Positions 336 through 43,348 of a stretch of 46,454 nt of DNA are shown in pieces (positions within the stretch are counted from its first letter, which is position 1; each line of letters starts with the position of its first letter). Location of the stretch: the sequence record MF158038; one strand, written 5' to 3'. Made by a program: the position numbers and the translations under genes. A model generated the notes under the pieces. That model made no database searches. It saw only the letters and a list, made by a program, of their open reading frames with translations, and was not told the origin of the DNA. The stretch comes from Shigella phage Sf11 SMD-2017.

Positions 336-482
336 CGATTTTTTGTGGTAGATGATTTCCGTGCCAATAACAGTATTGAAAAATTCAGGGCGAGCCTGTG
401 CTGTGTTGCGAAAGATAATTCGTGGCTTTTTGTAACCAGAAAGATGGAAGAAGGCGAAGTGTCTGTTCGGAGAATTAAATGA
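231..482 (+). CDS. Hypothetical early protein (likely start at ATG 258 after a GGAGG RBS)
   Basis: ORF track; ctggaggttgtcATG at 258; first gene of the plus-strand early block. Confidence 0.5.
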   Translation: MSLLLIDCLEVVMYRFGSAMAEVYEFVSGMSIGEVRFFVVDDFRANNSIEKFRASLCCVAKDNSWLFVTRKMEEGEVSVRRIK

Positions 483-2812
483 TGATTGGTTATGAAGATT
501 ACCGCAAATGTGGCTTCCCTATTATTGGAATCCATGCAATGGATATCGACCGCAATTGCACATGCGGTGATCCAGAATGCAATGCTGCCGGTAAGCATCC
601 GGTTATGAGTAACTGGCAGCTTGGAGTTATATGGGCTGATGACCAGATTGAAAATATGGCTGAATATGGTCAATTGCAGTCATTCGGTGTCCTTGTGAAT
701 GGTTATCTGGTAGTTGATATTGATCCACGCAACGGAGGTAATGATGGATATGAATCACTTTGTGATGCCTTAGACGTAGAGCTTGCTGACGAAGCTGGCT
801 TTACTGTTAAGACTGGTGGTGGTGGTCGCCACATCTATTACAAACTTCCTGAAGGAATAAAGCTGCGCTCTCATGACAGAAGGTTTAAGGGTATTGACTT
901 TAAATCATCTGGTTTTGTTGTTGGCTGCGGCTCATTCCATAAGTCAGGTAACTTTTATGAAGCTGAGCATGGCTCCCCTTCAGAGATAACTGAATGTCCA
1001 TCTGAACTTATTGAGCTTTTGTCGCGCCCTGAGAGAACGGAAGACGAAGTTTTCACGCTTGATAGTAAAAATTACAGCATTGCCGAAATGGAGGATATGC
1101 TCAAATACATCAAAGATGGTGATGAGTATGACCCATGGCTTCATGTAGGTATGGCTATCCACGAAGCTACAGAAGGCAATGGTTTTGAGCTTTGGGATAG
1201 ATGGTCATCGCAGTTCAGCAAATACAGAGCTGAAGAGATGGACGCAAAATGGCATTCCTTTGGAAAGGACGGTGTTAGCGAAAAGATAACAGAAGCAACG
1301 CTGGTTTATCTCGCGCAAGAGGGAGGGTGGGTAAGGCAAGTAACTTTTGAGGCTACGCCAGAGGAAATTGAGAAACTTGAGTCTTTCGAACGAGAGATGG
1401 CAATGGGTGTTGGTGAATGCCCTGTAGAGTACAAAAGTGTTGATGTCCGTTATCCCCCTGGATTTGTTGGTCGCCTTACGGCGTGGATTAATAAGAACTG
1501 TGCAGAGAAGCGAGAGAACATTGCAGCACTTGCCGCATTGCATGCCGCATCCATGATTTGCGGAGCGTCATCTGATATTTATCTTACAAACAGGAAAGCC
1601 TTACCAAACCTGTTTGCTGTTGGCATAGCTGGTTCAGGTTCAGGTAAGGGTGATGTCCTTGCTGCGCTACAAAAGATAATTGATTGCTCAGGATTGAGTA
1701 AGACAGTTGCCGGTAAGATACGTTCAGAGCGTGCGATATATGAAGGTCTTTGCGCTAACCAGATGTTTAATATCATCATGGATGAGATTGGGATAAAACT
1801 TGGTAGTGTTGTTGGTCAGAAAGTAAGCGAGTACAACATGGCAACCGCTGGTGCAATCATGGAGGCTTACACGTCAGAAGTTCTTTATTGTGACCAGCGG
1901 GTTACTGAGGATTTCATTAAGTCTTTCGAAAAGAGAAAGGCTATGCTGTTGATGGCTATTGAGGAAAATGAGATACAGGCAGACCCAGTTGACATTAAGT
2001 GTCAGTTTGATGATGTGATAAACAGAATTGATGGAGCTATAAGGAATCCATTTTTTTCAATCTTTGGTGTGTCTACTGATGATCAGTTTAAGCGACTTAT
2101 CACTGAAGAAAACATTAAGTCAGGTCTTATGGGTCGCGCAATGATTATGCAGGAGTTGCAGGAGATTGCTGACGAAAACGAAAACGTTAACTACTGTGAT
2201 CTACCTATGGATATGCAACTGACCATAAAAACAATAATAAATGGCGGAACGGCTGGGCACAAAAACTGGACAGACTCAATAATCAGTCAAAAAGAAAGAC
2301 GGATTATAAAAGCTACGCCTGAAGTTTCTCAGCTCGCTAAGGAGTTCTTCTCATGGATTAAAACCGTTGCAAGAAAGCATGTAGAAAATGGTACTGGTTA
2401 TCACCCATTGATAAACAGATGCGCCGTGAAGGTGGCAAAGATTGCTGGCATTCTCGCGTGCGATACTGGCGTCATAACCATGGAGCACTTGAGGTATGCG
2501 GTAGCATTAACAATTAAATCAACAAGCGATCTGATGATGCGTGCTGACAGTATCGCCGGAGCGAAGTCTAAAGCTATGGAAGAAAGAATTGAAGGTATTT
2601 TCTCCATGGTTAAAGAATATGTGAAGCGTGGAATGACCAAAACAGCAATGGTTAGAGGGGTAGCAAAAGAAGGTGGGTATAAACGTGCTGATGTCGAGAG
2701 GTGCGTAGAGAAGTTGTTATCAGATGGTATTATTTGCATTGATGAAAATGCAAAAAGAACATCTCACAACGTAATAATTTACAAATTAACAAATGATGAG
2801 GTTGAGATATGA
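479..2812 (+). CDS. DNA primase-polymerase (AEP prim-pol N-terminal domain, PriCT-like middle, P-loop NTPase/helicase-like C-terminal domain)
   Basis: 777-aa ORF; prim-pol-like motifs (LVVDIDPRNGG, GGGRHIYY, GIDFKSSGFVV), W..W..KW.SF primase C-terminal motif, Walker A GIAGSGSGKGD. Confidence 0.8.
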   Translation: MMIGYEDYRKCGFPIIGIHAMDIDRNCTCGDPECNAAGKHPVMSNWQLGVIWADDQIENMAEYGQLQSFGVLVNGYLVVDIDPRNGGNDGYESLCDALDVELADEAGFTVKTGGGGRHIYYKLPEGIKLRSHDRRFKGIDFKSSGFVVGCGSFHKSGNFYEAEHGSPSEITECPSELIELLSRPERTEDEVFTLDSKNYSIAEMEDMLKYIKDGDEYDPWLHVGMAIHEATEGNGFELWDRWSSQFSKYRAEEMDAKWHSFGKDGVSEKITEATLVYLAQEGGWVRQVTFEATPEEIEKLESFEREMAMGVGECPVEYKSVDVRYPPGFVGRLTAWINKNCAEKRENIAALAALHAASMICGASSDIYLTNRKALPNLFAVGIAGSGSGKGDVLAALQKIIDCSGLSKTVAGKIRSERAIYEGLCANQMFNIIMDEIGIKLGSVVGQKVSEYNMATAGAIMEAYTSEVLYCDQRVTEDFIKSFEKRKAMLLMAIEENEIQADPVDIKCQFDDVINRIDGAIRNPFFSIFGVSTDDQFKRLITEENIKSGLMGRAMIMQELQEIADENENVNYCDLPMDMQLTIKTIINGGTAGHKNWTDSIISQKERRIIKATPEVSQLAKEFFSWIKTVARKHVENGTGYHPLINRCAVKVAKIAGILACDTGVITMEHLRYAVALTIKSTSDLMMRADSIAGAKSKAMEERIEGIFSMVKEYVKRGMTKTAMVRGVAKEGGYKRADVERCVEKLLSDGIICIDENAKRTSHNVIIYKLTNDEVEI

Positions 2813-3231
2813 TTAATTACAAGTATCTGGTGATGAGAGGTTTGTATGACTATTTTGAGTCAGAAAATCCTGAGCGCGCACACGATAACGCAATATCCAT
2901 GATGACAGGAAAGCACCTGATGGAAGTTTACTACTGGAAAATGCCTGTATTCCGCTGCAATATGGGTATCTGCATTGATGATGACGTACTGTTTTGTCGA
3001 ATACAATATGAAAACAATGTTGGCATAGTGACAGCGTCGTACAGGGATGTTGCAAGGAAATCCGGAAACTGGCATCCAAGCGAAGTATTTGCTGGTGACG
3101 CACTATTTAATTTCTGCAAGGCGTTTGGTGTTTTGTATGAGGATGTAAGCAAAGAGTATAGCGGAAGGCGTGAGAAAGATAGCTTGAGTTCCAAGGGTGT
3201 GATTAACTACAAGGATAAAAACCATGTGTAA
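2809..3231 (+). CDS. Hypothetical protein
   Basis: ORF track; start overlaps primase stop (ATGA), consistent with operon coupling. Confidence 0.5.
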   Translation: MINYKYLVMRGLYDYFESENPERAHDNAISMMTGKHLMEVYYWKMPVFRCNMGICIDDDVLFCRIQYENNVGIVTASYRDVARKSGNWHPSEVFAGDALFNFCKAFGVLYEDVSKEYSGRREKDSLSSKGVINYKDKNHV

Positions 3232-3427
3232 CACAATGAGAACAATATCAGGCGAACTTTGTCGCTCAGAAGGTTCATGGCATTTCATGCCGAATGGTTA
3301 TTCGCCATGGTTTTTCTGGAGCGGGATTAACAAAGCATGGATTCTATCTAATTACCACGTGATTGATGATTACTGGCACAGATTTTGTGTTGGTTATGTT
3401 GATATTTCAAAATTGATGATTAAGTGA
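3224..3427 (+). CDS. Hypothetical protein
   Basis: ORF track; tight packing within the early operon. Confidence 0.4.
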   Translation: MCNTMRTISGELCRSEGSWHFMPNGYSPWFFWSGINKAWILSNYHVIDDYWHRFCVGYVDISKLMIK

Positions 3428-3437
3428 GGATAAGAAA

Positions 3438-3695
3438 ATGAATGTGAAAGATAAAGTTTTATACGTGATGAGAAAGAGAAAATCCATTGAGGAGGAGACA
3501 CTTGGGATTTGTCGCAAGTTCTCCGTGGCTACGTGGAATCTCCGTCTATCGATGGTGAATGAATTTCCTGATGATGAATGGACAACAGCAAAGTTACGGA
3601 AGGTTCTGATTTCTCTTTGTAAGGATGGCATTGTATCAAAGGATTTAAATAACAGTCGCATTGGTAATTCAGTTTGGATTCTGGAGGAAAACTGA
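3438..3695 (+). CDS. Hypothetical protein
   Basis: ORF track; RBS-like aggataagaaaATG. Confidence 0.45.
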   Translation: MNVKDKVLYVMRKRKSIEEETLGICRKFSVATWNLRLSMVNEFPDDEWTTAKLRKVLISLCKDGIVSKDLNNSRIGNSVWILEEN

Positions 3696-3976
3696 TGGCT
3701 AACTTGCAACTTGCCGTCAAAGGCGAATACTTCGATGCCATGATTCGTGGAGAGAAAACGGAAGAGTATCGCCTGTGCAATGACTACTGGAATAAACGAA
3801 TTATGTTCCGGGAATATGACCGCCTGATTATCACAAAGGGATATCCGAAGCGCGACGATTCCAGTCGAAGAATTGATGTTCTGTATGGCGGATATGAAAT
3901 CAAGACAATCACACACCCCCACTTCGGCGATAAACCGGTAAAGGTATACGCAATAAAAGTTAACATCAAAGCATAA
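3674..3976 (+). CDS. ASCH-domain protein (likely start ATG 3695)
   Basis: Contains ASCH-like GxKxxExR motif (RGEKTEEYR) near the N-terminus; about 93 aa from the ATG at 3695. Confidence 0.6.
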   Translation: MDSGGKLMANLQLAVKGEYFDAMIRGEKTEEYRLCNDYWNKRIMFREYDRLIITKGYPKRDDSSRRIDVLYGGYEIKTITHPHFGDKPVKVYAIKVNIKA

Positions 3977-3978
3977 CA

Positions 3979-4001
3979 AAAAGCCCGCAAACGCGGGCTT
4001 T
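3979..4001. terminator. Bidirectional intrinsic terminator (agcccgcaaacgcgggct + T-run)
   Basis: GC hairpin flanked by A-run and T-run between convergent genes. Confidence 0.7.
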
Positions 4002-4002
4002 A

Positions 4003-4287
4003 TTATTTAACAATCCATTTTGTAACAGCTGGCCTTAAATCTTCCTTTCTGAAGAGTCCACCAGTAAGTTTTTCGGCATCAATTGCTGCTGTAGCGCTAA
4101 TTCTTCCCCTTGACACCCACTGATTGACAGCCTGTTTTGACACACCAAGAAACCTTGCTAGTTGTGATTGCCCTCCAACATAATCAATCAGCTCTGATAG
4201 CTTCGTCTGTTCCATTTCTCTTATCTGTTCTGCGATGCTTTTCATGTGTTTACCTCTGCTATCTGTATGCAGCAATAATGAACTCAA
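4003..4287 (-). CDS. HTH (Cro/CI-type) DNA-binding regulator; probable start at 4245
   Basis: Small protein with helix-turn-helix-like segment (QSQLARFLGVSKQAVNQWVSRGR); only minus-strand gene in the early block; own promoter 4275-4303. Confidence 0.7.
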   Translation of the reverse strand: MSSLLLHTDSRGKHMKSIAEQIREMEQTKLSELIDYVGGQSQLARFLGVSKQAVNQWVSRGRISATAAIDAEKLTGGLFRKEDLRPAVTKWIVK

Positions 4288-4303: not shown

Positions 4304-4379
4304 GGTATTGCGTTTACCATCACGTTGACGTATCTTTAAGTCACACCAGCGATATGCTGAGTTAAATCGAGAGGACACT

Positions 4380-5222
4380 ATGAGCTTATCAATGATTCAA
4401 AAACCAAAACCAGCTGCACCAATCATAACATTGGTTGGTACTCCAGGTGTAGGCAAGACAACTCTTGCTGCGCTATTCCCAAACCCAGTGTTTATTCAGG
4501 CTGAAGAGATCACTGGTGTTTTTGACGACTGGGATGATGAAAAGAAACCAGATTCATTTCCTGTACTGAAGCGAGCTGATGCTAAACGCAAAACAAGCAC
4601 AAAGGATGATTTGCTGTCACAGCTACGCGCATTAATTACTGAGGAACATAATTACAAAACGCTTGTAATTGACTCAATCACAAGCCTGCATTCAATGTTT
4701 GAGCATGAGGTTTGTGAAAACTACGGTGTTGACAATGTGGGTTCTGCGGCTGGTGGTTACAACAAAGGATATATTGTTGTTTCTGAAATGCACGCTGAAA
4801 TAATAAATGCATGTAAGTATCTTCGCAAAGAAAAAGGGATGAGCATTATTTATCTTGCACACGCAGGTGTTAAAAAGATGAAGAATCGCCCTGATGCTGA
4901 TGAATACACCGTTTACACACTTGACATGCATGACGCTTCAGTTTCTGGTTATGTGAATCTGAGTGATGCTGTTATTTACATCAGGAATGAGGAGTTTGTG
5001 AAAGGGACTGAGACTGATAAGAAAGGGCAAGTCACCAAGTTTGGGAAGGTTGTTCAGACTGGTCAGCGAGTTCTTATTACCTCTGGCGACGGTCGGGTTG
5101 GATATGTTAATGCAAAAAACAGATACAACCTTGAGCCTGAAATTCCTTTTGAAAAAGGTGAGAACCCACTTTTGAGTGATATTAAATATTATGCATCTCT
5201 ACGAGATAACCAAACAGCTTAA
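4380..5222 (+). CDS. Sak4-like RecA-fold AAA ATPase (recombination/annealing-associated)
   Basis: Walker A GTPGVGKTT near N-terminus, about 280 aa, followed by Gp157-like and SSB-like genes. Confidence 0.7.
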   Translation: MSLSMIQKPKPAAPIITLVGTPGVGKTTLAALFPNPVFIQAEEITGVFDDWDDEKKPDSFPVLKRADAKRKTSTKDDLLSQLRALITEEHNYKTLVIDSITSLHSMFEHEVCENYGVDNVGSAAGGYNKGYIVVSEMHAEIINACKYLRKEKGMSIIYLAHAGVKKMKNRPDADEYTVYTLDMHDASVSGYVNLSDAVIYIRNEEFVKGTETDKKGQVTKFGKVVQTGQRVLITSGDGRVGYVNAKNRYNLEPEIPFEKGENPLLSDIKYYASLRDNQTA

Positions 5223-5670
5223 TGAACTGCTGGCGATGGAGGATATTCCACGGGATCAGATTGAAGATACCATCAATCTTATTGAAGAGGAGTTTGAAGG
5301 AAAGGCTGAAATGGTCGCTGCTTACATTCGTGAGCTTGAAGCTGATGAAGCTGGACTTAAATCCGAGATTGACCGTCTTTCTGAGCGTAAGCGTGTTTTA
5401 GTTGCTAAGATTGATAACCTTAAAGATTATCTTCGTCAGAACATGATGGCGTCAGGAAAGACAAACATCAAAGGTAAGTTGTTCAGTATCACGCTTGGAA
5501 AACCATCACCAGTTCTTGATGTGTTTGTCCCTGTTGAGCAGCTTCCTGAGCAGTACCGCGTTGTGAAAGTGTCGGCAGATAACGCAGCAATTAAAAATGC
5601 GATAAAAGCCGGGATTGAAATTAATGGTTGCGCCATCACCGACGGCAAACCGAAACTGATCATCAAATAA
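5176..5670 (+). CDS. Siphovirus Gp157-like protein (likely start 5191)
   Basis: About 160-aa coiled-coil-rich protein immediately after Sak4-like ATPase, the typical module arrangement. Confidence 0.55.
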   Translation: MILNIMHLYEITKQLNELLAMEDIPRDQIEDTINLIEEEFEGKAEMVAAYIRELEADEAGLKSEIDRLSERKRVLVAKIDNLKDYLRQNMMASGKTNIKGKLFSITLGKPSPVLDVFVPVEQLPEQYRVVKVSADNAAIKNAIKAGIEINGCAITDGKPKLIIK

Positions 5671-6209
5671 ATCGAGAGGACACAAAAATGGGTTTCTGGA
5701 ATCTTTCTGACGGTAAAGCTGTTGAATCTAAATCTGAATTTGAACTGGGTGGTGGTTTCGAAGTAATTCCTGATGGTAGCCGCGTTCTTGCTGCCGTTGA
5801 AGAATGTAAAGACGACCAGTGGGAAGGTGAGCGATTCTTCAATCTTAAGTGGCGAATCCTTGAGGGTGAGTATAAAAATCGCATCATCTTTCAGAAGCTG
5901 AAGGTATTTAGTTCAAAAGAGAAACAGCGTGATAATGCTATCACTATGCTTGCAGCAATTGACGCAAACGCTGGTGGTAAGCTGATGGCATCAGGGAAAG
6001 AGCCGACTGATTTTGCTATTGCCAGCGCGCTTGCAAATCGCCCGATGATTCTTCTTCTGCGCGTTTGGGAGTCTGAGGATAAGCAAAAAACTGGCAACTA
6101 TGTGGCTGGTGTTTTCAGTCGTCAACAGACAAAAGCAGCGCCTGCTCCTAAGCAATCAGCGCCATCTAACGAGCCGCCGATGGACTTCGACGACGACATT
6201 CCGTTTTAA
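5628..6209 (+). CDS. SSB-like protein carrying a host-type SSB C-terminal acidic tip (PPMDFDDDIPF); likely start ATG 5688
   Basis: C-terminus ...SAPSNEPPMDFDDDIPF matches the conserved E. coli SSB tip; RBS tcgagaggacac upstream of ATG 5688. Confidence 0.7.
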   Translation: MRHHRRQTETDHQINREDTKMGFWNLSDGKAVESKSEFELGGGFEVIPDGSRVLAAVEECKDDQWEGERFFNLKWRILEGEYKNRIIFQKLKVFSSKEKQRDNAITMLAAIDANAGGKLMASGKEPTDFAIASALANRPMILLLRVWESEDKQKTGNYVAGVFSRQQTKAAPAPKQSAPSNEPPMDFDDDIPF

Positions 6210-6220
6210 TTTAGATTGTA

Positions 6221-8131
6221 ATGACAGGGCCATTCGTGGCCCTTTTTATTCGAGAGGACACTATGAAAGTACAGCTTAGAACATACCAACAAGAAGCTGT
6301 TGATTCTGTTATAGGTCATATTCGTTCAAGCGTTTCATCGTGCATGATCATCTTGCCTACAGGGTCTGGAAAAAGCGTTGTTGTTGCATCAATCGCCGAT
6401 TGGGTATTTAAAAATACTGGAAAGCGCGTTCTGTGTGTTGCACCAACAAGCGAGTTAGTTGTTCAAAACAGGCAGCGGTATCTTTCTCTAACAGGAGAGC
6501 CAGCCAGCATGTTCAGTGCAAAGGCTGGACCAAAAAACCTGCGTCATCCGGTGGTGTTTGGTTCACCAGTTACAATCAAGAACTCAATAGAGATGTTTGG
6601 TGATAAGTATGGCGCTGTCATTATTGATGAATGTGATGGAATAACACCAACCATTAAATTTATTATTAATGAAATGAAGCGTCGCAATCCAAAACTGCGT
6701 GTTATTGGAATGACCGCTACTCCTTATCGCCTTGGAACTGGATACATCTACAAAGAGCACTATTTAGACGGTCCCACAGATGAAGAAACGGCAATTGACC
6801 CATATTACGACAAAGTCGTTTATGAGCTTGAGGCTAAATTCCTCATTGAACACGGATACCTTACGCCGCCAGTTACAGAGCCTGTTTTTGATGAATATGA
6901 TACGTCTTGTCTTGAAAAGGATAAGTTGGGTCGTTACACGACAGCTTCAGTTGAAAAGGCAATGGTTGGAAAAGGAAGGAAAACATCACGTATTGTTGAA
7001 GATATTATCCGTCGCTCTGTTAATCGGCGCGGAACGATGATTTTTGCCAGCACCAAGAAACACGCTATGGAGATAATGGAGTCACTTCCTCCCGGTTCTT
7101 ATAGTTATGTTTTTGGTGATATGCCGACAGCGGAACGCAATAAGGCAATATCAGACTTCAAGACGCAAAAAGTTAAATACATCGTCAACCAGAATATCCT
7201 TACTGTAGGGGTTGATGTTCCTCATTGTGATCACATAGCAGTAATGAGAGCCACAGAATCACCAAGGCTCTACCAGCAAATAATTGGCAGGGGGACGCGT
7301 CTTTATGAAGGAAAGGAAGATTTTCTTGTCAGCGATTACGCAGGCAACATCCAGCGCCACTTTTCCGAGACTGGGGACTTGTTTACTCCAGAAATAAAAG
7401 CAACAAGGAAAAAACCATCAGTGCCAATGGATGTAAAATGCCCGTTATGTGGTTTTATCAATGAATTTGGCGTGCGCCCAAATCCGGAAAATCTGGAAGT
7501 TGACAAAGAAGGTTACTGGCTTGATTTGGCTGGTGACAGAGTGATGATTGATATTTTTGATAAGTCAGGTGAAAAAATTGGAAGCAAGCCTATGCCTGCT
7601 CATTTTGGCAGAAGATGTAAAAACTACGTTATGCAAGGTCCACTAAGGGAAATGCACAGATGTACTTATAAATGGTCGGTAAAAGAGTGTCCTGATTGTG
7701 GGTTTGAAAATGATATAGCAGCAAGAAATTGCACATCATGCGGAGCTGAAATCATTGACCCCAATCAAAAGCTAAAGGAAGAAGCTGACAGGCTTGATTC
7801 TTCTCCTTATGCAACCAAGCAATCAAGCGTAACTATGATGAACATTATGAAGCATTACGTTTCAAGTGGCGAGGATTTGGTGCACGTAAAATTTGCTATT
7901 GAACAGAAGCCATTTTTTGTTAGCAAGTTCTACAATCCAAACTCTGAGAAGGAATGGATGAAGAAGGAGTGGGAAGAGTTTTGCGGTAAGTGCTTTGGTG
8001 AATCCGATATGTCAATTGATGATGCAATAGCAAAAAGAGATGAAGCTGTCGCACCATCGGTGATCATGTTCAGAAGAGATAAAGGAAGTAAATATTTCAA
8101 CGTTAAAGGCATGTATTGGGGGGTATTATGA
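6221..8131 (+). CDS. SF2 (DEAD/DEAH-type) helicase with C-terminal zinc ribbons; likely start ATG 6263
   Basis: Motifs LPTGSGKS (Walker A), IIDECD (DExD), TATP, QQIIGRGTR; three CxxC...CxxC pairs in the C-terminal region. Confidence 0.8.
   Translation: MTGPFVALFIREDTMKVQLRTYQQEAVDSVIGHIRSSVSSCMIILPTGSGKSVVVASIADWVFKNTGKRVLCVAPTSELVVQNRQRYLSLTGEPASMFSAKAGPKNLRHPVVFGSPVTIKNSIEMFGDKYGAVIIDECDGITPTIKFIINEMKRRNPKLRVIGMTATPYRLGTGYIYKEHYLDGPTDEETAIDPYYDKVVYELEAKFLIEHGYLTPPVTEPVFDEYDTSCLEKDKLGRYTTASVEKAMVGKGRKTSRIVEDIIRRSVNRRGTMIFASTKKHAMEIMESLPPGSYSYVFGDMPTAERNKAISDFKTQKVKYIVNQNILTVGVDVPHCDHIAVMRATESPRLYQQIIGRGTRLYEGKEDFLVSDYAGNIQRHFSETGDLFTPEIKATRKKPSVPMDVKCPLCGFINEFGVRPNPENLEVDKEGYWLDLAGDRVMIDIFDKSGEKIGSKPMPAHFGRRCKNYVMQGPLREMHRCTYKWSVKECPDCGFENDIAARNCTSCGAEIIDPNQKLKEEADRLDSSPYATKQSSVTMMNIMKHYVSSGEDLVHVKFAIEQKPFFVSKFYNPNSEKEWMKKEWEEFCGKCFGESDMSIDDAIAKRDEAVAPSVIMFRRDKGSKYFNVKGMYWGVL
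6226..6250 (+). terminator. Intrinsic terminator (gggccattcgtggccc + T-run)
   Basis: GC hairpin followed by tttttatt. Confidence 0.6.
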
Positions 8132-8583
8132 TTTTTCCAGAAGGCATTAAGGTATATGGAAATTTAGATTACAGGAACAAAAAGTGTCCGTCAGAAGATG
8201 CTGAACTGGAGACTTTTGTCAATCAGATAAGGAAGCTATATCCTGACTTTGCAAGAGTTATGATTCATGTGCCAAATGAAGGAAAGCGTAAAGGGTATGA
8301 AGTTGAAAACCTGAAGAAAAAAGGCTCGCTAAACTTCGGGGCGTCAGACATCATTATCATCGGAAAGCAATCATTCGTTATGGAGATGAAGAGAATGGAT
8401 CATACTTTATCAAAATGGCAGCCCGGTCAAATGGCATACCTTAAGGCAGCAAAAGAATTAGGTTCCTTCGCGTGTGTATGCCTTGGTTGGGAAGCTGCAA
8501 TAATGGCATTTAACGACTGGAGAGCAATGAATTACCCAAACTATAAAAAAACATCAGATCCATTGATATTTGATGGTTTTTAA
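8116..8583 (+). CDS. VRR-NUC domain nuclease
   Basis: Motifs HVPNEGKRKG, GASDIIIIGK and EMK consistent with the VRR-NUC / PD-(D/E)xK fold. Confidence 0.7.
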   Translation: MGGIMIFPEGIKVYGNLDYRNKKCPSEDAELETFVNQIRKLYPDFARVMIHVPNEGKRKGYEVENLKKKGSLNFGASDIIIIGKQSFVMEMKRMDHTLSKWQPGQMAYLKAAKELGSFACVCLGWEAAIMAFNDWRAMNYPNYKKTSDPLIFDGF

Positions 8584-8700
8584 CAGCCACGCCAGCAATC
8601 AGGCCAACAACCGCAACGACAACAACAGCCGCCAAAACAACAAGTCCCACAAGGAGGCAATGAGCCCCCAATGGACTTCGACGACGACATTCCGTTCTGA
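8584..8700 (+). other. In-frame extension after the VRR-NUC TAA stop that encodes a Q/P-rich linker plus SSB C-terminal tip (…GGNEPPMDFDDDIPF*)
   Basis: Direct translation of 8584..8700 in the VRR-NUC frame; 26 nt (atggacttcgacgacgacattccgtt) identical to the 3' end of the SSB-like gene at 6184-6209. Confidence 0.6.
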
Positions 8701-8707
8701 TGATAAA

Positions 8708-8735
8708 ACTAACCCCGCCGAAGCGGGGTTTATTG
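8708..8735. terminator. Bidirectional terminator between early operon and tailspike gene (aaccccgccgaagcggggtt)
   Basis: GC hairpin with flanking A/T runs between convergent genes. Confidence 0.7.
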
Positions 8736-8738
8736 TTG

Positions 8739-35455: not shown

Positions 35456-35752
35456 ATGACTGGCGGCAATAATCTGTATGCAGAGCGGGATATAGATATC
35501 CTTGATGAAACTGGTGGCTTTTATTCCCAGCACGTTAGCGCCATGACCTCTGAATCATTACACTCAAAATCAGCTATTGCTGCTGAGTTAGCATATCGCG
35601 ACATGCTTATTAACGAGTTAGTTATTGCCGTGCAACAGGTAATTGAATGCTACGATTCTGCGGGTGGCAAAGTCTGGACAACATCAAGCAAGCGTCGTGC
35701 TCTGGATAATGCTCGTGCGGCGGTTAATAAAGCATTGGGAGAAACAAAATGA
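35456..35752 (+). CDS. Hypothetical protein
   Basis: ORF track; ATGA coupling. Confidence 0.45.
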   Translation: MTGGNNLYAERDIDILDETGGFYSQHVSAMTSESLHSKSAIAAELAYRDMLINELVIAVQQVIECYDSAGGKVWTTSSKRRALDNARAAVNKALGETK

Positions 35753-36234
35753 AACAATGCGATCTTTTCCGTGTTCTTAGTTATAACCCTGAATCTGGTG
35801 AATTCACGTGGATTAAATCAAGAAGACATGGGTTTAGCGGTCGAAAGGCTGGGTCGGTAAATGGGAAAGGGTACATACAGATCTGCATTGATGGAAAGCT
35901 TTACCTTGCGCACAGGCTTGCTCTTCTATACGTGACAGGAGAGATGCCAAAGGAGGTGGACCATATTAACAGGGTGAGAGATGACAATAGATTATGCAAC
36001 TTAAGGCCATGCACTTCATCTGAAAATAAGCACAACAAGGATATCACATCCAGAAACAAAACAGGGATAAAGGGCGTCAGCTGGTATCCTGCCGGAAATT
36101 CATGGAGAGTAAGGATATGCGTAAATAAAACACAGATTCATCTGGGCTACTACGAAGACATTGAGCTGGCAGAGCTTGTGTCACAAGAGGCGAGAATTAA
36201 ATACGCAGGAGATTTTAATTATGAAGCTTATTGA
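35749..36234 (+). CDS. HNH homing endonuclease with AP2-like DNA-binding domain
   Basis: HRLALLY...EVDHINRVRDDNRLCNLR...ENKHN HNH motif; GIKGVSWYPAGNSWRVRI AP2-like motif; paralogue of 42818..43348. Confidence 0.75.
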   Translation: MKQCDLFRVLSYNPESGEFTWIKSRRHGFSGRKAGSVNGKGYIQICIDGKLYLAHRLALLYVTGEMPKEVDHINRVRDDNRLCNLRPCTSSENKHNKDITSRNKTGIKGVSWYPAGNSWRVRICVNKTQIHLGYYEDIELAELVSQEARIKYAGDFNYEAY

Positions 36235-41400: not shown

Positions 41401-42825
41401 TTATCGCCTGCGACGGATTAGCATTCCGCTACCGCGCTGAACGATATGGTCTCCAAGGCCATATCGTAAACTATCAATCGCGTGATTGTATTTATCAACT
41501 ATGTCGGGGAGTATGTTCCCTGTTAATTTATCCACCTTGTAGCTGTACATTGTCATTTCTTCAATAACGTGCTTGCATCTTGAGTGTACGTAAATCCTGT
41601 CACACCCACGAAGCCATGTAATACCATCTTCAATACTCCCCGGCCATTTTGCGCACGGATGAATATCGAATCCAGATCGGCGTATATGGCTTATTGTCTC
41701 AGGGCGAGCGCAATCCCCATACCATCTGTACTTTTCTGAATTTGGGAAGGCCGAGCGCATCGCCTCCGGTGTGTCAGTTATCTCGAGACCAACCTTTGCA
41801 AAGTCGCGGTAGATATACAGGTTTCTTCTTCCGCCGCCCAAATCCTCGACATAAGATTCAGTTGCTGCCGTAGCATCCTGTGAGAAACCAAAGTCAATAC
41901 CATAGTAAGGCCCGCCCCAATCTGGCGACGGCTCAAAATCAAGAGTCTGCCATTTACCCCCAAGCACAGCTTCATCTGAACGCCGGTTAAATAACCCCTC
42001 ATAAACCCACAGATAGCGATCATAATCAACCGCCTTCATCTGGTTCATATGCTGTTTAAGTTCCTCGGTAAACCAGGGGTTATGGATGTAGTTAACGTTC
42101 ACAACGACAATATCATCATCCTGATATATCCCATCAACCATCTTATCCACATACGGCTCAACAAAGTTTGTCCACGTGGGATCGGTTTCCCGATTGGGGT
42201 TAAAAACAATAATAATTTCAGAGCCAGAGGCGCGAACTGTAGGAATGAGTGTATCCCATGACACCTGACTAATGTTCTCCGACTCCTCGCAGAACACATC
42301 GGTAAGTCCAGCCATCCCTTTAATGGCCGTGATGTTGCGCCACATGCCCCGGAATACGAACTTTGACCGCGTGCCGTGGTGGGTTATCTCGCCATCGACG
42401 CACCGGTATTCCTGAGCGTGTCCCTTCCTGTTAATTTCATCGACCAGCTCGGCGTAGCTGGACTCCTTGATTGAGTTCTGAATTTCCCGGAAGCAGCCAA
42501 CCCTGCAATTTCTGAATCTTGCCTTTTCGATAAGATAGGAAACGACGTTAGCCGTTTTGCCGCTGCCCCTTCCGCCATAGAAGACCTTAAACCGGCGCGG
42601 ATAAAGCAAAAGCTCCATGCGTTCAGGGATTAATATTGTTGGCTCTTCAGTTGTCTCTGATACGCCATCTTGAGTCATTTTAAGTCGCTTGATAACATTT
42701 GGCGTGCCATCATCAAGCAGCTTATCGACAATGCCGAAAACAGCAGAGTCTGGCTTCTCCATGGAGTTACCAACCGCTTCTTCCAGCTTTTCGATTGCCA
42801 CACTTGAGAGTCTTTTTCTAGCCAT
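41401..42825 (-). CDS. terL: Terminase large subunit
   Basis: Walker A YGGRGSGKT; C-terminal nuclease motifs (GIDFG, DKYNHAIDSLRY); 474 aa. Confidence 0.9.
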   Translation of the reverse strand: MARKRLSSVAIEKLEEAVGNSMEKPDSAVFGIVDKLLDDGTPNVIKRLKMTQDGVSETTEEPTILIPERMELLLYPRRFKVFYGGRGSGKTANVVSYLIEKARFRNCRVGCFREIQNSIKESSYAELVDEINRKGHAQEYRCVDGEITHHGTRSKFVFRGMWRNITAIKGMAGLTDVFCEESENISQVSWDTLIPTVRASGSEIIIVFNPNRETDPTWTNFVEPYVDKMVDGIYQDDDIVVVNVNYIHNPWFTEELKQHMNQMKAVDYDRYLWVYEGLFNRRSDEAVLGGKWQTLDFEPSPDWGGPYYGIDFGFSQDATAATESYVEDLGGGRRNLYIYRDFAKVGLEITDTPEAMRSAFPNSEKYRWYGDCARPETISHIRRSGFDIHPCAKWPGSIEDGITWLRGCDRIYVHSRCKHVIEEMTMYSYKVDKLTGNILPDIVDKYNHAIDSLRYGLGDHIVQRGSGMLIRRRR

Positions 42826-43348
42826 GATTAAAAAACTCCCCGTGATGTTTCTCTCTTTCTTCCATTATCTTTTTGACTGCATCTTCAATGTTGGCGAACC
42901 TGCCAAGATTAACCATCCTGCCATTTATATTTAATCTTGCCATCCACTTGCATCTTGATTTATCCCAATACACACCCTTAACCCCTGACGTGTTGTTTGC
43001 CTGTAGCTTTTTGTTGTAACCATTTTGTTGATGGTCAGCCTCTCGCAGATTAACAAAACGATTATCAAGCGTATTGTTGTTTATGTGGTCTATTTCTTTT
43101 TCAGGCCAACTACCAGTCATATAAAGCCAAGCCAGCCTATGCGATCTATACCACTTTCTTCCAAAATGAATATAGTGATACGGTCGCTTGCTACCAACGG
43201 TGCCGCATAATTTTATTGTTCCTGCTGGCTTCCCGGGCTTAGCCCTTCCCTGCTTGTGTGGGTTTTTCCATGTAAAAATTCCGGTGTCAGGATTGTAATC
43301 AAGGATGTGTTTTAATTCTGCTTGCGTAAGCATATATAGATTCCTCAT
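42818..43348 (-). CDS. HNH homing endonuclease with AP2-like domain, between terS and terL
   Basis: HRLAWLY...EIDHINNNTLDNRFVNLR...DHQQN HNH motif; GVKGVYWDKSRCKWMARL AP2-like motif. Confidence 0.75.
   Translation of the reverse strand: MRNLYMLTQAELKHILDYNPDTGIFTWKNPHKQGRAKPGKPAGTIKLCGTVGSKRPYHYIHFGRKWYRSHRLAWLYMTGSWPEKEIDHINNNTLDNRFVNLREADHQQNGYNKKLQANNTSGVKGVYWDKSRCKWMARLNINGRMVNLGRFANIEDAVKKIMEEREKHHGEFFNHG

Follow-up and report, generated by a model that had tools for sequence, protein, structure and literature searches.

Proteins of the DUF669 family have been predicted to be diverged OB-fold single-strand DNA binding proteins (SSBs) with acidic tails of the kind usual in SSBs (Kazlauskas et al. 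2016, PMC4889955), and the DUF669 / PHROG 9002 and 378 SSBs have been linked to the SSB of phage N4 (PMC4889955). In phage HK620, the non-canonical SSB HkaK needs its last six residues for the adjacent Sak4 annealase to be loaded onto ssDNA coated with this SSB, and its tip is also required for annealing (Hutinet et al. 2018, PMC5928155). PrgE of plasmid pCF10 (PDB 8s4s, 8s4t), the product of a conjugation-operon gene, assembles head-to-tail on DNA by means of its N-terminal arm, and the paper on it describes no SSB-Ct-like tip (PMC11137577). T7 gp2.5 and Bas52_0087, an SSB-like trigger of DRT10, are other phage ssDNA-binding proteins in which an acidic tail ending in Phe docks partners, and the FDDDIPF tip of Bas52_0087 also copies that of E. 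coli.

Here we describe an SSB gene of Shigella phage Sf11 SMD-2017 (sequence record MF158038), carried on a stretch of 46,454 nucleotides that was analysed as a whole and is hereafter called the window. Escherichia phage Sa179lw, of the genus Buchananvirus, and Klebsiella phage YX3973 are colinear with the whole window and share about 90-94% nucleotide identity with it. An earlier note, made from the sequence alone, had presented the product of this gene as a chimera in which a phage ssDNA-binding body unlike that of E. coli SSB had acquired the tip of a host SSB, thereby gaining access to the host SSB interactome. In itself the Sf11 SSB is ordinary; what the locus adds is a second, truncated ssb tail, evidence for exchange of tips and a polymorphism of the tip among close relatives.

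The Sf11 SSB and its gene neighbourhood

The gene and its surroundings comprise the following features.

479-2812, plus strand: Prim-Pol / PriCT_2 / DUF3987 primase, the only polymerase-like replication enzyme found
4380-5222, plus strand: Sak4-like (AAA_24) ssDNA-annealing ATPase (PF13479, E=1.9e-27; PHROG 124, E=5.8e-46)
5191-5670, plus strand: Gp157 / Gam-like protein (PF05565, E=2.5e-38; PHROG 253), start set by analogy with YX3973 gp12
5672-5683, plus strand: translation-initiation motif TCGAGAGGACAC, which contains GAGAGG, 4 nt upstream of the ssb ATG
5688-6209, plus strand: ssb gene, ATG to TAA, encoding 173 amino acids
5760-6122, plus strand: predicted divergent OB-fold core, approximately residues 25-145, with a helical insert at residues 78-115
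6123-6158, plus strand: disordered linker, residues 146-157, delimited by pLDDT and site variation among homologs
6159-6206, plus strand: SSB-Ct-type tip APSNEPPMDFDDDIPF, the same as the C-terminus of E. coli SSB
6226-6243, plus strand: hairpin resembling an intrinsic terminator, with a T run after it, separating ssb from the helicase gene
6263-8131, plus strand: SF2 DNA helicase with ResIII, DEAD and Helicase_C domains (PHROG 16)
8128-8583, plus strand: nuclease-like gene ending in TAA (PHROG 824, E=4e-39; no Pfam match)

The start codon of ssb can be fixed at position 5688 because the homologs all begin with M[GS]FWN. Searches with the product returned 199 homologs, a match to Pfam PF05037 (DUF669) over residues 23-141 that lies above the curated cut-off (25.9 bits versus 21, E=1.2e-5), and a match over residues 1-173 of 173 to PHROG 9002, annotated 'single strand DNA binding protein' (E=2e-70). 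Judging from these matches, the Sf11 protein belongs, as a regular member, to the phage SSB family DUF669 / PHROG 9002. It shares with this family a diverged OB fold, an acidic tail, the status of lone complete SSB and a location in a replication/recombination module; nothing essential sets the Sf11 clade apart, except that some of its alleles carry an unusually long exact copy of the host tip (16 aa).

Two observations of the earlier note were borne out. The body is indeed unlike the OB domain of E. coli SSB, since BLASTP found no match at E<=100 and no Pfam family of canonical SSBs was recognized. Likewise, the last 16 residues (APSNEPPMDFDDDIPF) are identical to those of E. coli SSB, the 17th residue from the end being the first to differ (S vs A). 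When the PDB was searched with phmmer, the alignment was confined to residues 127-173, which matched residues 136-178 of E. coli SSB (1eqq, E=3.4e-5). The Sf11 protein and the SSBs of E. coli and other Enterobacterales thus have in common the ...DFDDDIPF tip and the disordered linker that precedes it, whereas the N-terminal OB domain of E. coli SSB has no homologous counterpart in the phage protein. In the structure prediction, pLDDT stays below 50 across residues 148-169, and 10 of the 12 linker sites vary among 60 close homologs.

The fold of the N-terminal part, which the earlier note had proposed to verify, is not that of a canonical SSB as far as sequence goes, but the predicted body is nevertheless a divergent OB fold whose closest match is PrgE of pCF10. 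The core of PrgE is structurally similar to the predicted Sf11 core, although the two share only 12-15% sequence identity, and PrgE was not matched by a profile of 55 homologs run against all PDB sequences. Neither phmmer nor this profile provided a sequence link to any solved structure in the PDB, returning only the tail and chance matches. Invariant aromatic and basic residues in the body fit ssDNA binding, and the conserved N-terminal segment (F3, F18, G22, G23) could, by analogy with PrgE, support head-to-tail assembly. A T7 gp2.5-type fold was considered and rejected, being absent from the top structural matches; the architectures of T7 gp2.5 (gp2.5-type OB) and Bas52_0087 (double OB) differ from that of the Sf11 SSB. 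No other complete SSB was found in the window by tblastn using the OB domain of E. coli SSB, the two matches obtained with the E. coli protein being confined to tails, and a single SSB is annotated in the colinear relative Sa179lw.

The gene neighbourhood recalls that of HK620. Both phages encode a non-canonical SSB with a DDDIPF-like tip near a Sak4 (AAA_24) gene; however, the HK620 tip reads NDYPPF, and in the window the Gp157 gene separates ssb from the Sak4-like gene (4380-5222). By this analogy, the Sak4-like ATPase is a likely partner of the Sf11 tip. The resemblance is not one of detectable homology: hhalign comparison of the homolog alignment with HkaK gave a probability of 0.1, HkaK has no Pfam match at E<=0.01 in the current release, DUF669 included, and the literature reports only a remote, HHpred-level link for the HK620 SSB. 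The exact 12-mer TCGAGAGGACAC occurs three times, at 4367-4378, 5672-5683 and 6250-6261, in each case 1-4 nt before the ATG of, respectively, the Sak4-like, ssb and helicase genes. The three genes share it as a translation-initiation cassette, and it is possibly also a common regulatory site. Downstream of ssb, the hairpin at 6226-6243 is conserved in ECO111 5-P, YX3973 and Sa179lw, and is replaced by a different hairpin in ECO95 and gmqsjt-1. In relatives, the nuclease-like gene is annotated as VRR-NUC or type III restriction endonuclease. No phage DNA polymerase is annotated in Sa179lw, nor was any found in scans of part of the window, and dependence on host Pol III is likely because the colinear relative has no annotated polymerase.

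Several regions of the window have no counterpart in Sa179lw. Two HNH endonuclease genes of PHROG 99 (35749-36234, plus strand; 42818-43348, minus strand) probably represent mobile homing endonucleases; one of them adjoins the large terminase gene (41401-42825). Three small ORFs at 3198-3974, belonging to PHROGs 33005, 2814 and 625 (function-unknown PHROGs), lie just upstream of a bidirectional terminator (3980-4001) and of a divergent Cro/YdaS-like repressor gene (4003-4287, minus strand). The window also carries genes for tRNA-Ser(GCU) and tRNA-Arg(UCU), located within 20558-20727.

Distribution and variation of the tip

The acidic tip is not peculiar to Sf11. Among 61 homologs below approximately 90% identity, 55 end with [IVLMF][PG]F, most commonly as DFDDDIPF or DFDDDVGF. 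A search blind to the tail, using residues 1-145 only against 1.84 billion cluster representatives, yielded 550 matches at E<=1e-3. Of the best 150 of these 550 matches, counted as representatives at 50% identity, 111 carry [IVLMF][PG]F at the C-terminus and 124 a terminal F, and in 116 three or more of the last ten residues are acidic. The idea of a special chimera with a grafted tip is therefore not upheld, because acidic tips occur family-wide in DUF669 SSBs, as the literature already recorded (PMC4889955).

More distant homologs display a graded likeness to the host tip (EPPVDFDDDIPF, SNEPLVDFDDDIPF, DFDDDVGF). The homolog of Brucella phage Pr ends with HDLDDEIPF, and DLDDEIPF is the SSB tip of alpha-proteobacteria (PMC13490951). 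The tip of DUF669 SSBs follows host class, with inexact matches such as AFDDSEDIPF in Proteus phage ZX7 and VDYDEDIGF in Yersinia phage P400. The enterobacterial host proposed in the earlier note agrees with the hosts of related phages, which infect E. coli, Klebsiella and Salmonella, and with the presence of the 16-residue motif in Enterobacterales genomes. In three relatives of 194-195 aa (P0060, P0066 and P0067), ...DFDDDIPF is followed by 15 additional residues (APVGLQYANHAIYVL), so that Phe is no longer C-terminal; this extension is either a stop-codon loss or an assembly variant.

Among close relatives, the tail is far more variable than the core. Per-site variability over the last 28 residues is approximately 20-fold that of the core in 60 proteins with at least 95% identity. 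The host-identical DDDIPF occurs only in a minority of these homologs, DSDVPF and SDDVPF being common; the alleles found in close relatives are DDDIPF, DSDVPF, SDDVPF, DDDVPF, SDDIPF and EEDVPF. They do not track host genus, and exact identity with the host tip is not required for growth, because relatives with the same host carry DSDVPF or SDDVPF. Where the window has GAC, the Ser residues of these alleles are encoded by TCT, AGT or TCA, which indicates that the variants are allele replacements, not single mutations.

Comparison of six sequenced relatives revealed 305 synonymous versus 10 non-synonymous codon differences in the body (145 codons), indicative of very strong purifying selection, and 94 synonymous versus 54 non-synonymous differences in the tail (28 codons). 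Nucleotide divergence in this set reaches 0.156 per site in the tail versus 0.02-0.07 in the body. Directly 3′ of the ssb stop codon, the sequences of the relatives belong to two classes unrelated to each other, and the tail therefore adjoins a mosaic junction.

A second SSB tail next to the tailspike gene

A tblastn search using residues 135-178 of E. coli SSB returned, besides the tip of the DUF669 gene, a second match at 8575-8697 (E=1.8e-7). The features of this region are as follows.

8584-8703, plus strand: second SSB tail of 38 sense codons (QPRQQSGQQPQRQQQPPKQQVPQGGNEPPMDFDDDIPF) followed by TGA TGA, in frame directly after the nuclease TAA (8581-8583)
8711-8730, both strands: bidirectional terminator that separates the ssb fragment from the convergent tailspike gene
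8739-10496, minus strand: tailspike gene, convergent with the ssb fragment

The encoded sequence ends with …GGNEPPMDFDDDIPF, immediately before the double TGA. Nucleotides 8582-8737 are 90-91% identical to the ssb 3′ end and terminator of phages ZCEC08, HC6, Akira, BS5, LPST10 and others, the homology reaching approximately position 8737, terminator included. These are Escherichia and Salmonella siphophages (Jersey-like) in which a complete, bacterial-type ssb gene faces a convergent tail-fibre or tailspike gene. The segment 8584-8703 is evidently the linker and tip of such a canonical phage ssb gene, minus its OB domain. The receptor-binding part of the neighbouring tailspike (8840-10017) is a swapped host-range cassette: it is missing from Sa179lw and shows 81.5% identity to the tailspike of phage Sf101, a P22-like phage of Shigella flexneri.

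We compared eight distinct natural variants of the fragment (the window, ECO111 5-P, YX3973, Sa179lw, three IMG/VR contigs and one Logan contig). All eight keep the upstream stop (TAA or TAG), the 38 codons free of indels and nonsense mutations, and the double TGA; two of the eight end with DDSIPF. In the frame of the tail, pN/pS is 0.10 versus 0.08 in the nuclease gene and 0.24-3.2 in the five other frames, and synonymous divergence climbs toward the tailspike, from 0.20 in the nuclease gene to 0.31 in the linker and 0.89 in the tip. We read the fragment as a recombination scar kept as a homology arm for the exchange of tailspike cassettes with phages bearing an intact ssb, a role that would account for a low pN combined with a very high pS rising toward the tailspike cassette. 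A minus-strand ORF at 8510-8758 was rejected as a real gene: the third codon positions of the plus strand are its second codon positions, the reverse frames have higher pN/pS, and the terminator lies inside it.

Alternatively, leaky termination at the conserved TAA/TAG-C stop of the nuclease gene could yield a minor isoform with the complete SSB linker and tip, which would target this isoform to SSB-Ct-binding proteins or SSB-coated DNA; the Asp/Ser variants of both tails (DDDIPF, DSDVPF, SDDVPF, DDSIPF) would then be selected, for example by partner tuning or escape from an SSB-sensing defence. We consider this scenario unlikely. None of the nuclease homologs, all 49 of which measure 119-152 aa, has an uninterrupted SSB tail, and the phage encodes no stop-suppressor tRNA, its only tRNAs being the two mentioned above. 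A metagenome scan for the junction between the nuclease gene and the fragment gave no matches. In a sister lineage devoid of the ssb fragment, the 3′ end of the nuclease gene has TAG in ECO95 1-6-1 and GAG in gmqsjt-1; ten in-frame codons follow the TAG in ECO95 1-6-1 before another stop is reached, so that an in-frame stop close to the 3′ end of this gene is seen for a second time.

The tail of the DUF669 gene and the fragment are linked by a 43-nt repeat, 88% identical, that includes an exact run of 26 nt (6180-6205 = 8671-8696). This run is made of GAC codons, which represent about a third of the Asp codons of the phage. Across seven partly related genomes, the two tips are more alike within than between genomes, the observed sum being reached by 12 of 5040 permutations. 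Lineage codon bias was rejected as the source of this likeness, the GAT fraction being 0.68-0.72 in all three genomes tested and their genome-wide usage of Asp and Phe codons being alike. In ECO111 5-P, the closest relative, the DUF669 tip reads GAC TCT GAC GTG, which is the sequence of the fragment, versus GAC GAC GAC ATT in the window. These data suggest gene conversion between the DUF669 tail and the fragment, a lead drawn from a small sample of seven partly related genomes, in which the signal lies mainly in the choice among GAY and TTY codons. Canonical phage ssb tails of bacterial type are a more likely source of the exact tip than the host chromosome.

Origin and role of the tip

We propose, with a probability of roughly 0.78, that the gene encodes the phage's own DUF669 / PHROG 9002 SSB, that its tip docks partners, and that the exact host-type tip is a circulating allele kept or renewed by recombination with phage ssb tails. 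The divergent OB-fold core would coat ssDNA during replication and recombination, leaving exposed the acidic tip, a copy of the bacterial SSB tip with its final ...I-P-F, as a docking peptide. Following the example of HK620, the tip may recruit the Sak4-like annealase encoded two genes upstream. It would probably also dock host partners of SSB, such as the chi subunit of Pol III, PriA and ExoI, because it equals that of the host and checks of parts of the genome revealed no replicative DNA polymerase. The connection to the host interactome advanced in the earlier note is therefore plausible, but is not expected to be the sole role of the tip, given that the HK620 tip serves to recruit the phage's own Sak4 (PMC5928155). 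An SSB-Ct-like tip matched to host class would be ancestral to the DUF669 family, the exact 16-residue enterobacterial tip being one of several alleles that circulate in Buchananvirus-like phages. Recombination or gene conversion with the tails of canonical phage ssb genes would most likely keep or renew this allele, and 8584-8703 would be one such tail that survives.

The identity of all 16 residues with the E. coli SSB tip cannot have arisen by chance, and since it reaches beyond the minimal partner-binding tip, it would also be expected if a phage ssDNA-binding module had recently taken over the 3′ end of a host chromosomal ssb gene to form a chimera. The comparison with host ssb 3′ ends called for by the earlier note does reveal some host-like traits. 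Nucleotides 6157-6212 are 89% identical (50/56 nt) to the ssb 3′ end of most of 5,426 E. coli genomes (best 93%) and share with the E. coli gene an exact run of 23 nt; the tip matches K-12 ssb at 43/48 nt and at 11/16 codons when 6.9 would be expected from the codon usage of the phage (P=0.023), and the tail uses codons that are in the minority in the phage (TCT, CCG three times, GAC four times). Using a degenerate pattern, we retrieved 120 genomes, mostly of Enterobacterales, that encode the same 16 residues; their tails are identical to the phage tip at 34-45 of 48 nt, with a mean codon identity of 9.2 versus 6.8±1.1 under the null (P about 0.02). This codon signal is weak, however, and no donor emerged. 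No exact copy of the 42-mer for SNEPPMDFDDDIPF occurs in one genome from each of 185,579 species, the best bacterial match is 45/48 nt, the maximum codon identity of 13 is not significant (P=0.065), and bacterial tails are closer to each other (10.7/16 codons) than to the phage tail (9.2). Phage ssb tails are at least as close, the canonical one of ZCEC08 being identical to the Sf11 tail at 37 of 38 nt and the fragment in the same genome sharing the 26-nt exact run, and the family-wide occurrence of the tip makes it older than the Sf11 lineage. Direct or recent capture from a host chromosome is thus not supported, and we regard the chimera as quite unlikely.

Convergence by point mutation, driven by selection for the same binding pockets without any exchange of DNA, would fit the graded likeness to the host tip in distant homologs and the match to host class even in Brucella phages. 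In complexes of SSB-Ct, it is generally the last few residues that are seen bound. The identity nonetheless includes APSNEPP, which lies outside the terminal seven or eight residues reported as functionally relevant in SSB-Ct, allele changes need 2-3 nt per codon (GAC versus TCT, AGT or TCA), synonymous divergence is raised in the tail as well, and the correlation between the two tips within genomes is not anticipated from mutation alone, all of which makes pure convergence unlikely. We also considered that the protein might not be mainly a replication/recombination SSB: its host-identical tip could compete for ExoI, RecQ, PriA or chi, so that it would act as a decoy titrating host SSB-binding proteins (another phage SSB-like protein with FDDDIPF has been proposed to interfere with SbcB; bioRxiv 10.64898/2026.04.29.721553), or it might be an annealing protein, the annotation ('ssDNA annealing protein') given to the relative in Yersinia phage P400. 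Such roles are very improbable, since the predicted OB fold with its invariant aromatic and basic residues fits ssDNA binding, the protein is the lone complete SSB by tblastn in the window and by annotation in Sa179lw, and its body is under the purifying selection described above.

A phage-owned DUF669 SSB with a circulating, exchangeable tip therefore remains our preferred reading. It shows the well-known docking tip of SSB carried by a family of phage SSBs unrelated in sequence to bacterial SSB. This has a bearing on which host and phage proteins can be recruited to phage ssDNA, and is relevant to the choice of SSB/annealase pairs for recombineering. Less expected is that tail-coding DNA would act as a small module able to move and to be converted. 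Should many genomes confirm it, this would be a clear case of a protein-interaction motif shaped in phages by gene conversion on a micro-scale, and of a conserved coding fragment that provides a homology arm for the exchange of host-range modules.
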